A stretch of DNA of 64,000 bases from Eledone cirrhosa. Taxonomy: Eukaryota. Made by a program: the position numbers and the translations under genes. The stretch spans positions 10,850,001-10,914,000 of the forward strand of contig OZ024765.1 of NCBI GenBank assembly GCA_964016885.1, given 5' to 3'. This document shows positions 4,116 to 63,894 of this stretch, one piece after another. Every line of letters begins with the position of its first letter. Positions within the stretch are counted from its first letter, which is position 1. The notes beneath the pieces were generated by a model. The model was not told the DNA's origin. It did not search any database and saw only the letters and a list, made by a program, of their open reading frames with translations.

Positions 4116-5632
4116 ACCTAGCAACAGATTACTGGAGAAACCTTACCAAATATATTGTTGTTGTTGTTATTTAATTTGACCTTCTGTTTTTTGGTTTGTT
4201 TGGGGGGGTTTCTCTCACAATCACTCACACATGCGTACACATACATGACTTTCACACATACGTACACTCACTTGTTTTCACTCACACGCTTTCATATACA
4301 CTCACACACTCACGCACACACTCTCTCACGCTCACACACAATCTCTCACAGACACACACGCAATCTCTCATATGCACACTATCTCATACACACATTCACT
4401 TTCTCACACACTCTCTCTCTTTCTCTTATACTTTCTCTCACGCACTCACACATACAGTCTCTCTCTCTCTCTCTCTCACATCCACAGTCTTTCTCTCTTT
4501 TACACTCACACATACACAATATCTCTCTCTCTCTCACATCCACAGTCTTTCTCTCTCTCACACACATACACAATATCCCTCTCTCTCTCACATACACAAC
4601 ATCTCTCTCTCTCTCACACACACATACACTGTCTCTGTCTCCCATCATCATCACCACTATACATCAGTAACCTGCTCACAATCCACCATTATTTCACTTT
4701 AAACTGTAGGTCAAAGGTATTTCAGGGTTTTTTAAAACTTTATATTCTTCTCTCTCATTTTATTTCCTTAATTTAGAAGTTATAGATTTTTTAAAACCTT
4801 CTGGAGGCTGAATTTTTAATGAGTTGCTTCCCTTGAACCTGTATTATGTATTAAAGGGAGAAAACTCAATCAGTGACTTCAGTCGTCCACAGCGCCAAGA
4901 GGGTTAACCAATTCTTTTCTTTTGCCTCTGAAATCTTCACGTTCCTTTTTATTGCTCTCTCTTGCATCTAACTTTAACATATTGCATGCTTTGGTTCTGA
5001 GTTTCTTTATCAAATATATAAATATATATATATTATATATTATATATATTATTGGGTTTCTAAGGGAATGTTAATAATAATTTCATAATTTGCATGGGTT
5101 TTATATACATACATATATATATATATACATACACACATACATAATATATATATGTATGTATATATACACATATATATATATATGTGTGTGTGTGTGTATA
5201 TACATATATGTATATATATATATATATATATATATACATTGGCTTGGACTCTATTGGCTATCTATCTTTCTAGTTATCTTCCTATACTTACACGGGTCTC
5301 TCTTTCTCTCTCATATATATTACCCTCTTTCTCTCTCTCTCTCTCCTCTTCTCTTTCTCCAATGTAATTTATTATATTTCTAAAATGTATTTTAATATTT
5401 TAAACTTTTATAGTGAAACTTCCTCTGACAAGAAGAATTCTAAAAAAATAATAATTAATAAATAAATATTTACAATTTCAGATTGAATAAGTGTAATATT
5501 GTATATAATATATTTAATGTGTTAGAATACAACGTATATATATATATATATATATATATATATATATATATATATATATATATATATATATATAAAAAGA
5601 AGAAATTAAAAGATGGTTACAAGAGTTCCATA

Positions 5633-5702
5633 TATTTTATTATGCGCATTTCGAATACAAAATCATCATGGGACCAAAATTGTGTTCTCATCAGATAAAA
5701 TA
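5633..5702 (-). ncRNA. Type-I hammerhead ribozyme (PLE pLTR fragment of about 5594-6450)
   Basis: Minus strand: tattttat-CTGATGA-gaacacaa...ttgtattc-GAAA-tgcgca-TA-ataaaata. Perfect core, 8-bp stem I, palindromic stem III. Confidence 0.85.
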
Positions 5703-7109
5703 AGGTAACATGATATGAGGCATAATAGCACTTGTTTACAGGAAAGTGCTAAGTCTACATATGACAGAAATATAAGTGTTAAAACTATAGTAAGAAATAG
5801 ATAGGAAAATAGAAGAAAGGAAAGAAGAGGGGAAGAGAGAAACTTTTGATCAGGAACGCTGTCAAAATGAAAACAGCTGTAAATAATGGTTAAAAAGTAA
5901 ATTGATGAGGTGTATGTGCGAATATTATAGACGGTATTCAAATACTAGAGGCCTAAATATAGAAACTGGGTATATTATTTTATATTGGGTTTAAATACTA
6001 AAAATTGGAATAAGAAGTGTAAAAATGTATTAATAAAATAAAATAAAATGAATATAAAAAAAGATTTTTATAAAATAAAATAGAAATAAAAATAGTCTAT
6101 CTATGTGAAAATTAATAATTTCTAGTAAAAATCTATATATGTGGGGTATACTATTTTATTTTTATTTTATATCAAGTAAATAAAGGAAATTACTAGAAAG
6201 ATTTATAAACGTAGAAAAACATATGACATCATAATTTGTTTACAAAATCTACGAAGGTTTGAGCGAAAATCGAAGGCTATAGAAAAAAAGATCAAAGGCT
6301 TAAAATATGATGAGAAAACCAAATTAATACATTGTAGAATATAATGAAAGATGACTGACTCGTGGGATATGTTATAGGACATCAGCTATATACTTTGTGA
6401 AAGGTCTTGTAGGATTTATGATTACAATGTCCAAATAAATCGGTTCTTCGATTTATTATTGTGTTGAAATTCGAGATAATGGTAAATTTTTCAATATCAG
6501 TAGAGCATTGGACAATATGCTTTACAGCATAGAGTTACAGACATTCACATTCTGAGATCAAATCTTGTTGTAGATAGTTTTGCCTTTCATCTTTACGGGG
6601 TCAATTTAATGCAGCAAAGCACTCAATAAGGTTGTGTCACCTTAGTGTAATAACATACGATAGATAGCTGGACAAATTGAAAACTGCGGCAGGCAAGCCT
6701 AGCCATTAGATATATATTTCTGGCTGATAACTATATATATATATATATATATATATCATCATTTCATTTTACGTCCACTTTTCCCTGCTTGCAAGGGTGG
6801 GACGGGAACTGATTCTGGCTTGATTTCTACAGCTGGATGCCCTTCCTAACACCAACCTCATTTACAGTGAGTGCTGGGTGTTTTTTTGCCGTGGCACCTC
6901 CATGATCACTTTGCAGTGGAATGATAGGGATCCCAGTCCCTATCATCTCATTTCTACAGCTGAGTAAACTGGAGCAATGTGAAATAAAGTGTCTTGCTCA
7001 AGGAAACAACACATCACCAAGCCATGTGCCTCTATATATATATATATATATATATAACTGAAACTGTAAGACAAAGTGAAGTAGTTAATTCATTATTTTA
7101 CGATGGTTT

Positions 7110-7303
7110 AGGGCGGTGGATTGGCAGTATCGGTAGAGGGTCGGACGCCATGCGTTGACGCATAGAGTTACGGCCTTTGCCATTCTGTGTTCAAATTCCG
7201 CCAAGGTTAACTTTACCTTTCATCCTTACGGGGTCGATAAAATAAAGTACTAGCAATGCACTGAGTAATTGCTGGCATTGTGCCAAAAGTAGAAACAATT
7301 ATT
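7110..7303 (+). mobile_element. SINE family A
   Basis: Full consensus match. Confidence 0.85.
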
Positions 7304-61409: not shown

Positions 61410-61590
61410 AATTGGCAGTATCGGTAGAGTCAGACGTCATGTTTTCCAGCATAGTTATGTCCCTTTATGATCTGATTTCAAATCCCGCTGAGGTTAACTT
61501 TGCCTTTCATCCATACGGGGGTTGATAAAATAAAGTACCAGTAATGTACTGGGTAATTGCTGGCCTTGTGCCGAAAGTAGAAACAATTAT
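61410..61590 (+). mobile_element. SINE-A nested inside the PLE 3' region
   Basis: Consensus match between the ORF end and the pLTR. Confidence 0.8.
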
Positions 61591-62295
61591 TTAAAAGGGA
61601 TTCAATTGTGACACTATATAATGTCTATTAGAGCAAAGAATTTAAATAATTTAATTTAATGAGCTCCTTACCTCCCCTTAATCACTTCCGGAAATCTCAC
61701 TGTGGAACAACTCTAATCCATGAATAAGAATACAATAAGACCAATTTACAATCTATTACTGTAACTAACTAAAACCATTCAATACAAACATTAACTAAAA
61801 TATAATTTAACATATGTAATGGATAGGAAAACAATAACTTTGATATTCTCACACATACAAATTTGAACTCTACAGAAACTATCATCGCATCACATCCTCC
61901 ATAATTTTAATACACTAACATATTCGTTTAAAGTGCTTTTATTTTATGTAATACCTTGCCATACAGTATTTATATATGCCTAATACCTTTGCTTGTTTCC
62001 TAATATATATGACTAACACATGTGCACTCTCTACACGCTTGCATATGTACTGCTAGTGTCTTCATTCTTTCTCAATGTCTCTTTAATTATTAGACTATTC
62101 TCTTCTATTATCTGTTGCATGTATTCCACTCTCTGCTTTTAATTTTAATTTGAATTTTTGTACAAATCTCGTATAATATATGTAGCATCCATTCCACCCT
62201 GTAAATACTAAACTGTTGTTCACAACATCAATATATATGTATCTGTATGATTGTTCAGTTGATTAGGAGGTTAAATTATATGTACAAACATTGAT

Positions 62296-62347
62296 AATGC
62301 TCCGATGACTCCAAACGAAAGTTTGGAAGAAACAATTGTCAGCGATT
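62296..62347 (+). ncRNA. Minimal type-I hammerhead ribozyme in PLE pLTR
   Basis: tgct-CCGATGA-c[tccaaac-gaaa-gtttgga]a-GAAA-caattg-TC-agc: stem I, stem II with GNRA loop, palindromic stem III, GUC site at 62340. Core has a U4->C variant. Confidence 0.75.
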
Positions 62348-63894
62348 AAATGATTTGAACATAACTTTGATATTTGTGTAATTTATATTCCTGCTCTGTA
62401 AAACACCTGATGTTTTTACATTGAGCTATTTCTCTTACTGGTAATAAGGTAGTAATATATTACTGACCTTTCCTGTTTATAGTATATACATAACTATAAA
62501 TAACACCATTACTATTATTATATATATACATGTATATATATACATAGAAAATGGAAAACTAAGAAAAGTAAGAATAATTTCTTTCAAATTTTTGTAAATA
62601 AATCCAGTTTTTCATTAACTTTGCAACTTTTTAAGCAGAAAAATCCTTCAGAACAAACATCCATAGAGATGCGGAAAAAGGAATTTTGAAGTGGAGTGAT
62701 TGGATAGCTATTAGTGAAAAGACAAGTTTTGTGTAAATCAGACCACAGGTTCCCGAGATACAGTTTTTTTGTGGGTACTTTGAACTATTGATGACCCAAC
62801 GGTTCACGAGTAGTCTAGTATATACCTATTTTAAGAAATTAACTAAAGTTTCTCTCTCTATATATAAATCAACAATTACATGGGAGGAGGAGGTGGTGAG
62901 AGCTGACCTCAGATAGTTCAAGCTCACAGAGGAGATAACGACCCAACCCACCTTTGCAAGCCAGGAAAAAGTGGATGTAAGATGTTGATGACAGCAGCTA
63001 AATATTCTCCACAGAGGAAACGACTTCCATCTTTGAAGAAGCTAAATAAATTGTGAAATGAAAAAAGAATAAACCAAATTTTTTCTTTGTTGCTTCATTA
63101 TTTCTTTTGTGTATATCTATATATAGTATCTAGAGACACACACCCAGCTACCTTTATTTATACAATATAAATGCTGTTCACTAAACACAGGCATGTAATT
63201 ATATACCTCTTCTTCTTAGAAACTAAATCACTCTATACGTACAGCTTCATTCTTCTTTGCTCTATAGAAGATGTCTATTTAAATGTAGTTGTACATACAT
63301 ATACACCTGATGTAAGAAACTTTTCCTTTTCTATTTATAAACCCCCTTCTCTAGATACAGTATATATATACACATAGCTATATTTTTCTCTATATAACTT
63401 TACATATATATACCTCGTGTAGGAAACTACTACTACTATTCCTGTGTATATATACTTACCTCTTCTTTTATTATATATGTATACCTTCTCTATACAGGAA
63501 GAAATACATACATCTTCTTTACACAGGAAAGTACTACTACTGTCTTCTCTAGGGAATAAAAGAAATTAAATAAATAAATAAAACAGGTTTTTGTTGTTGA
63601 TCTTTTTTATTTCTTCAAACTGTGTATATATATATACACACAACTGCAGGCTGACCACGATACTCTCATGGAATGACCAGATCAGGTTTATTATTCAACA
63701 TCCCTGGAAAGAGATATTAATAAAAAGTAAGAGTTTAAATTAATGTATGCAAGATCTAGAGAGAGAAGAAGCTAAACCTCTAGAGACACATCGAGTTAGA
63801 TAACCAAGCCTTCTATACATAATACACACATAAACTTTCTTCATCTAGAGCGTAATAAATAAACAAAACTAAATCTCTACACAAGAAAATAGTA

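Follow-up and report, generated by a model that had tools for sequence, protein, structure and literature searches.

Hammerhead motifs in a 64-kb window of the Eledone cirrhosa genome: a broken Hydra-clade PLE and probable 3' ends of other PLE families

Why does one stretch of the Eledone cirrhosa genome hold so many hammerhead ribozymes, and to what do they belong? The stretch analysed here (64,000 nt of contig OZ024765.1, assembly GCA_964016885.1, positions 10,850,001 to 10,914,000; hereafter the window) had been predicted from its letters to be a dense hammerhead landscape of several sequence families, nearly all next to (TA)n. With high confidence, one hammerhead pair ends a broken Hydra-clade Penelope-like element (PLE), and each of the others likely sits at the 3' end of a short, truncated copy from a further PLE family whose insertion was probably directed to (TA)n. 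Both the (TA)n habit and PLE hammerheads have already been published; the novelty lies in uncatalogued PLE families of a known kind.

Six motifs in four insertions

A descriptor scan allowing one core mismatch returned six type I hammerheads, exactly the six that the original prediction had called well formed. From core to cleavage site they span:

5694-5641, minus strand
15396-15441, plus strand
15647-15593, minus strand
15782-15836, plus strand
58894-58856, minus strand
62302-62340, plus strand

Shuffled versions of the 64-kb window gave a mean of 0.2 and a maximum of 1 in 100 shuffles; a density equal to that of shuffled sequence would have spoken against the prediction. Strict-core hammerheads number four in the window against a shuffle mean of 0.02, and none of 200 shuffles reached four. 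The type I core (CUGANGA ... GAAA ... UH) is strict in four of the six motifs and carries U4C in the other two. Both of these, in the element at 58813-62388, read CCGAUGA, the core being followed by a C.A mismatch; U4C is a known natural hammerhead variant of reduced activity (PMC3088659). Around each core the scan found a stem I of 6-9 bp, a stem III of 4 bp without a loop and a stem II of 3-7 contiguous bp that is longer past a mismatch. By core and three stems, the six are predicted type I hammerheads. Rfam found no hammerhead in the window at gathering thresholds, nor in 15000-16000 at E<=10, where only hairpin-only miRNA matches appeared below threshold; motifs of this kind are missed by Rfam. 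Its sole match in the window was a tRNA-like SINE head at 9008-9071.

In two cases a pair of motifs stems from one inverted insertion with a motif in each arm, at 15555-15889 (arms 94.6% identical) and at 58813-59467 / 61727-62388 (97.9%), so that six motifs reduce to four insertions of three families. The landscape lies far above shuffles, but its density is inflated because both arms of inverted insertions were counted. The presence of several families was borne out, five being distinguishable in the window: the decayed sites 39155 and 56065 make up a fourth (D/E), and a half-motif at 57170-57203 a fifth (F). Two of the families comprise these insertions:

5595..5765, minus strand: family A terminal fragment, strict-core hammerhead at 5633-5702, 3' end adjoining (TA)30
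15555..15874: inverted pair of family A with a minus-strand hammerhead at 15585-15655 and a plus-strand one at 15774-15844, left end adjoining (TA)30
15327..15493, plus strand: family B solo insertion, flanked by one (TA)n run on either side, with a strict-core hammerhead at 15391-15446 (descriptor scan)

The arms of the family A pair meet at a palindrome ~65 nt upstream of the cores. Inverted-pair anatomy is present in four insertions; an inverted truncated copy with a palindromic junction has been published for PLEs (PMC3846280), and families A and D/E both show it. Within TA runs, target-site duplications are unreadable. Copy A1 of family A is ~20% different from A2 and A3. Across the three copies 95% of 80 paired cells are kept, and a single pair, at the foot of stem II, has changed on both sides (G-C to A-U); with three rows the covariation is not significant, 160 of 500 shuffles scoring as high. 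Folding gave z values of 0.0, -0.1 and -1.7, two of the three copies being no better than shuffles. A metagenome search with the family A pattern returned 119 loci, four of them having stems I and II; among the 119, no autonomous partner emerged, as none was similar to family A by blastn and none was matched by the 75 proteins discussed below.

The Hydra-clade element and its relatives

The largest insertion is made up as follows:

58813..62388, plus strand: predicted 5'-truncated, inactive Hydra-clade PLE (protein matches, motif comparison, multi-copy)
58813-59467: inverted arm, a copy of the element's 3' end
58849..58901, minus strand: the same hammerhead as at 62296..62348, in the inverted arm, whose element end adjoins a TA-rich tract at 58776-58812
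~59453-60925: C-terminal half of the RT, thumb, linker and GIY-YIG endonuclease, with stops and frameshifts
61408-61592: SINE inserted in the 3' region
62296..62348, plus strand: type I hammerhead with U4C core, 7-bp stem II and palindromic stem III
62388: 3' end of the element

As judged from its sequence, 58813-62388 is a 5'-truncated, dead PLE with Hydra-clade endonuclease motifs. Its segment 59426-60481 matches 75 proteins of 625-940 aa (E 1.8e-50 to 8.7e-26), and tblastn with these relatives covers 59303-60379 and 60483-60884, a PLE RT with a C-terminal GIY-YIG endonuclease. Section 11 and Fig S7 of Craig et al. 2021 (PMC8557442) give as marks of the Hydra clade a CxCX5C linker, CxxC and CxH around E and N, RWK and DKT. 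Among the 75 relatives, CxCX5C occurs in 63, DKT in 67, RWK in 54 and the CxxC-E...LN...CxH pattern in 65. The window translation itself reads CNCRSNRTC, CNLCLLE and LN...CQH; it has the CxCX5C linker, CxxC and CxH round the conserved E and N, and no CCHH, while the RWK/DKT part was lost by truncation. Pfam returned no match on 15 frames of three regions, the broken PLE frames included. The hammerhead lies near the element's 3' end, its GUC site 43 nt from that end; a TA tract stands at the left end and a 5-nt TA remnant at the right. Of 646 differences to other copies, 40 were listed; the U4C site, position 58893, does not appear in those 40.

In its C-terminal GIY-YIG without CCHH, CxCX5C linker and CxxC/CxH round E and N, the element resembles the Hydra-clade PLEs described in PMC8557442, including Hydra-1_Obim of Octopus bimaculoides. 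It further shares with them insertion at (TA)n, a hammerhead close to the 3' end and an inverted 5'-truncated copy as in Penelope-13_HM. The supplement of that paper lists a Hydra-clade PLE from an octopus that bears a hammerhead and prefers (TA)n; in Hydra hammerheads the core is frequently followed by a mismatch and stem III is often palindromic (PMC8557442). The window element nevertheless differs from Hydra-1_Obim in hammerhead and RT sequences, as compared by eye with those printed, and its U4C core is shown by none of the Hydra rows compared in File S2. Unlike described Hydra-clade PLEs, it has a long post-ORF region of ~1.4 kb. Four short sequence motifs of the window element were not found in the compared parts of the Craig et al. 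2021 supplement. A literature search for octopus Penelope hammerheads found no paper, a weak blank since the octopus case sits in a supplement (PMC8557442).

Similarly, the motifs resemble minimal PLE hammerheads (Cervera and de la Pena 2014, PMC4209133) in being type I with a long stem II, a palindromic stem III and an extra base after the core, although the 15-bp stem II of family A is unusually long. Those hammerheads occur as thousands of dispersed single copies and as opposite-strand pairs 100-700 bp apart, with several families per genome; the one searched supplement file of that paper holds no octopus entry. Six per 64 kb is well above its genome counts (~9000 in Xenopus tropicalis), for one selected window and not a genome average. 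Naiad and Neptune PLEs share the (TA)n preference, and two octopus species are known to carry Naiads. In Naiads, however, canonical hammerheads are missing and the endonuclease is N-terminal, whereas that of the window PLE is C-terminal; the window yielded no Naiad or Neptune ORF. Non-LTR retrozymes (bioRxiv 10.64898/2026.07.22.740005; see also PMC7229834) likewise combine type I hammerheads with non-coding PLE-related repeats. Their hammerhead-bearing units are repeated in tandem, head to tail, an arrangement not found in the window, where copies are solo or inverted.

The original prediction invoked multiple PLE lineages and called for each family to be tied to an autonomous PLE. Several families are indeed involved, but only the Hydra-clade family is tied to PLE proteins and different clades did not emerge; no ORF lies beside families A, B, D/E and F in the window. 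These four are likely PLE kin by anatomy, with one family of five linked to a PLE ORF.

(TA)n runs and the origin of the short insertions

The proposed preference for (TA)n holds in part: enrichment above chance was found and the preference is published, but the effect is modest and concerns four insertions. Over 10 settings, p for closeness to (TA)n ranged from 0.002 to 0.054, the latter in one setting. Cleavage sites lie 38, 38, 43 and 52 nt from a TA run, and ~46 nt by eye for the site at 5641; for the motif at 62302, the nearest (TA)5+ run is 171 nt away. The run lies on the 3' side of the site, at a near-constant 38-52 nt, in three unrelated families. Hydra, Naiad and Neptune PLEs, octopus families included, are already on record as preferring (TA)n (Craig et al. 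2021, PMC8557442), and File S1 lists this preference for 26 of 27 Hydra families, Hydra-1_Obim among them. It is quite improbable that the link is secondary, with TA runs grown from AT-rich ends after insertion, or the window merely TA-rich. Such a reading could draw on the 18% of ordinary positions that have a (TA)5+ run no more than 50 nt away (18-22% for (TA)4-5), on the mere TA remnant at the big element's right end, and on the SINE copies of the window, which also end at TA runs; the p values, the near-constant 3' spacing and the published preference all argue against it.

Under the favoured reading of truncated PLE ends, a GIY-YIG endonuclease would nick in or next to a (TA)n run, in keeping with the published preference. 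Reverse transcription may then begin ~40-50 nt downstream of the ribozyme site, as in vitro work on PAc suggests, which would explain the observed spacing of 38-52 nt from cleavage site to element end. Were synthesis mostly to halt early, the ribozyme-bearing 3' end would be the piece most often left. Fold-back or self-priming could create the inverted second copy, which doubles the motif count. Given the very short palindromic stems III, most cleavage in the parent RNA would depend on dimer formation or on a helper protein; the copies in the window are for the most part inert debris. PAc itself inserts in vitro without ribozyme cleavage, though the motif is conserved (PMC11167929).

Might the short families A, B, D/E and F be non-autonomous ribozyme elements, retrozyme- or MITE-like, that spread as short RNAs on PLE enzymes? 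The missing ORFs, the 167-bp family B insert with TA on both sides, and the much greater depth at terminal regions than over the ORF among other copies would suit such elements, and retrozymes have been argued to stem from PLE pLTRs (bioRxiv 10.64898/2026.07.22.740005). They are nonetheless unlikely, as the window's tandem arrays hold no descriptor match at <=1 mismatch, 5' ends differ among copies of one family as truncation predicts, and the stems are of PLE type. Co-option by the host, for example to cut intronic or non-coding transcripts, is very improbable: decay or truncation affects half of the copies, no host gene turned up, and single minimal PLE hammerheads gave no detectable in vitro cleavage (PMC4209133). 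The perfect core retained by four motifs despite the divergence of A1 can be attributed to selection on the parent elements.

A bolder extension is doubtful, namely that this is one of the densest hammerhead genomes, with tens of thousands or more motifs and many uncatalogued (TA)n-targeting PLE families, in which the folded ribozyme is a hot spot for reverse-transcription stop or fold-back and a weakened U4C core is spreading in one family. In each of the two D/E pairs the junction falls at the core, and three halves start at stem II. If genome-wide density and breakpoints at the ribozyme proved true, a genome of many young families would suit study of the role of PLE hammerheads in transposition, and the U4C family, if real, would be a natural case of partial loss of function.

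Decayed and partial motifs

Beyond the six, the following candidates were delimited:

39097..39258: family D/E decayed inverted pair, arms meeting within ~6 nt of the 5' core
56062..56235: second decayed inverted pair of family D/E, joined at the 5' core; the family is multi-copy
57170..57203, minus strand: 3' half-motif of the fifth family (3'-half descriptor), loose end behind 57203
8465..8497, minus strand: possible, weak 3' half-motif beside a short TA run (3'-half descriptor)
45543..45616, minus strand: possible 3' half-motif, site 44 nt from (TA)25
45705..45765, plus strand: possible decayed whole hammerhead with G5A core, z -2.1, not beside (TA)n

The degenerate sites expected at 39155 and 56065 survive as decayed pairs, whose damaged cores passed no descriptor even at two core mismatches, and that at 57100-57200 as a 3' half, whose missing core is supplied by reads of other copies (101 and 101 contigs; 1595 and 1761 reads). 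The one at 58743 was unsupported: 58727..58777 (minus), a 51-bp insert between TA runs carrying CUGAUGA and GAAA, failed the descriptor and folded no better than shuffles (z +1.1). Among half-motifs said to be cut by (TA)n, 8465-8497 passes the 3'-half descriptor but 6710-6730 and 8020-8040 fail it and are rejected on present evidence. As a class, 3' halves gave seven matches, two from the big element itself, against a shuffle mean of 2.3; 17 of 200 shuffles gave at least five, which places the class marginally above chance. A second decayed PLE at 57250-58700, suggested by RT-thumb likeness by eye, was not supported: Hydra relatives gave no match there, and one of six frames of this 1.4 kb beside the 57170 half-motif had no match among 1.84 billion proteins.

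The suggestion that such debris makes up a large part of the 'unique' intronic DNA was not supported. No host exon was identified in the ORF-listed parts (1-21000 and 51500-64000), and the eight delimited units total 4735 bp, only 7.4% of the window, or 1159 bp (1.8%) without the big element. The two candidates at 45543..45616 and 45705..45765 had been overlooked by the original prediction. GAAA followed by TATAT occurs five times in the window.

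Hammerhead motifs and their families

The six well-formed hammerheads of the original prediction (5633, 15391, 15585, 15774, 58849 and 62296) were all recovered by descriptor searches. Four motifs in the window matched a strict type I descriptor, whereas 200 local dinucleotide shuffles averaged 0.02. The relaxed descriptor, which tolerated one core mismatch and, following the core, an unpaired or mismatched base, returned exactly the same six, while 100 shuffles averaged 0.2 and none exceeded 1, placing the hit density far above that of shuffled sequence at either setting. With two mismatches, three extra low-scoring matches appeared (17787, 30237 and 53422), none of them predicted, the shuffle controls applying to the stricter settings only. 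As a count, however, six does not stand: although every motif is real, they represent four insertions in three families, because self-comparison identified 15585 and 15774 as the two arms of one inverted insertion (94.6% identity) and 58849 and 62296 as those of another (97.9%), and related the 5633 motif to the first pair at 79%. The latter three motifs of 5633, 15585 and 15774 make up family A, the solo insertion at 15391 family B, and the remaining pair belongs to H, a broken Penelope-like element (PLE). Of the 80 cells of family A (three rows), 95% are paired, and the G-C pair that closes stem II is replaced by A-U, without significance on three rows (160/500 shuffles as high). Two metagenome contigs (L018:233-265 and L021:556-593) carry clean type I hammerheads with family A's palindromic stem III, and are otherwise dissimilar.

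The suggestion that a large share of the unique, presumed intronic DNA is ribozyme-bearing debris was not upheld, as the eight delimited units amount to 4735 bp (7.4% of the window), falling to 1159 bp (1.8%) once the big element is excluded; older debris that went unrecognised may raise these figures. The setting is AT-rich, repeat-dense animal DNA with 133 tandem-repeat rows, long satellites, numerous (TA)n runs and dozens of copies of a single tRNA-derived SINE, apparently an octopus SINE. Short fragments at 16990-17190, 3240-3620, 9660-9950 and 42830-43040 are presumably LINE-like 3′ ends. By eye, a 108-bp satellite unit at 19010-20196 recurs 32 kb away in opposite orientation (51884-52300). 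A 74-bp satellite (35315-36846) contains an inversion at ~35475-35590. The ORFs of 1-21000 and 51500-64000 included no recognisable host exon; 21000-51500 was partly read by eye.

Decayed sites and half-motifs

Two sites predicted as degenerate, 39155 and 56065, align together as one family (D/E), each being an inverted pair with damaged but recognisable cores and a junction at, or a few bases from, the 5′ core. Position 56167 differs from other copies (167 of 169 plus-strand reads in set X5 and 86 contigs in set X1), whose base completes the stem III pairing there. The degenerate motif placed at 57100-57200 proved to be a real half: 57170-57203 on the minus strand, with stem II, GAAA, a palindromic stem III and one stem I arm. 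Behind 57203, the loose end (101 contigs in X1 and 101 in X2; 1595 reads in X5 and 1761 in X6) supplies, in reverse complement, the absent 5′ core and matching stem I arm. The site is thus a truncated member of a fifth family, which is abundant. The neighbouring low-copy 1.5-kb stretch, 57204-58700, has a 76-bp direct repeat (57252-57324 and 58206-58280, 79%) and a small palindrome holding a core-like word (57237-57252), and is possibly an old element. The last degenerate site, 58743, matched none of the descriptors and failed to fold.

A 3′-half descriptor gave seven matches (2372, 8482, 45598, 45741, 57190 and the two H motifs). The control shuffles, which left TA runs in place, had a mean of 2.3, and 17 of 200 reached 5. 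This descriptor is incomplete because it missed the family A and B motifs. Among the predicted half-motifs it recovered 8482 and missed 6710 and 8020. Two candidates had escaped the original prediction:

45705-45765, candidate decayed whole motif, G5A
45543-45616, candidate 3′ half, 44 nt from (TA)25

A hairpin insert of 80 bp, flanked by TA runs and followed by a segment like that right of the family A pair, was noted at 8068-8235 and 15880-15972; this sequence may be a PLE tail.

Spacing, inversion junctions and precedent

The predicted enrichment near (TA)n was also supported, though modestly. Against random placement in non-satellite DNA, the four insertions gave p values of 0.002-0.054 over 10 settings, varying with run length and the H arm counted. 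More telling than these values is the near-constant site-to-TA geometry, with the TA run lying 3′ of the cleavage site at 38, 38, 43 and 52 nt, at ~46 nt for 5641 and at 44 nt for the 45587 half. At H2, in the big element, the element end falls at the same position, yet only five TA letters lie beyond; at 57183 the distance is 92. Both D/E copies (39195-39215 and 56120-56135) have their inversion junction where the hammerhead core starts on its 5′ side; the junction lies at a palindrome 65 nt upstream in family A, and ~570 nt upstream in the big element. Beyond the motifs, families, inverted anatomy, spacing and clade motifs established here, we infer that an endonuclease would target (TA)n, that target-primed reverse transcription would start at a set position close to the 3′ end, that copies would be truncated early, and that fold-back would give the inverted arm.

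The hammerhead finding is real, explained and largely known; the families themselves are new, of a known kind. Thousands of dispersed PLE hammerheads are reported, which form several families within a genome and also occur as opposite-strand pairs, the minimal motifs showing weak cleavage, as dimers (Cervera and de la Pena 2014, PMC4209133). Hydra-1_Obim is entered as bearing a hammerhead and preferring (TA)n (Craig et al. 2021, PMC8557442), and inverted pLTRs with palindromic junctions are described (PMC3846280). An in vitro mechanism is also given, in which cleavage by the motifs is aided by protein and insertion can proceed without them (PMC11167929). Octopus vulgaris PLEs have been annotated, the word ribozyme being absent from the main text (PMC13282606), and retrozymes are treated in bioRxiv 10.64898/2026.07.22.740005. 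Literature searches turned up no genome-wide hammerhead census for an octopus, although supplements could hold one. It is unlikely that the genome has a record hammerhead density with breakpoints at the ribozyme, the case being weaker because the window was selected and half-motifs appear only when halves are sought.

The Hydra-clade element

The big element (58813-62388) carries a broken ORF whose first part matches 75 proteins at 27-45% identity, all confined within the window to 59303-60884. In the window translation, the endonuclease has CNCRSNRTC (CxCX5C) without CCHH, and CNLC precedes the conserved E while CQH follows the conserved N; judged on these residues against the published alignment (PMC8557442), its marks are those of the Hydra clade. 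The copy is 5′-truncated within RT, has stops and frameshifts, and has its 3′ end duplicated as a 657-bp inverted copy with 14 differences. The element belongs to a multi-copy family: contig depths, which do not give copy number, sum to 2500-15000 in ORF bins and 20000-44000 in terminal bins, which include TA repeats, with single long contigs at ~8-9. Both arms carry a U4C core, so the change was presumably already in this insertion's template; natural U4C has been noted (PMC3088659). Rotifer Penelope elements have been described as containing N-rich inserts (PMC3846280); here, asparagine-rich low-complexity stretches occupy the PLE linker at 59930-60480 and are also present in the closest relative, P0001.
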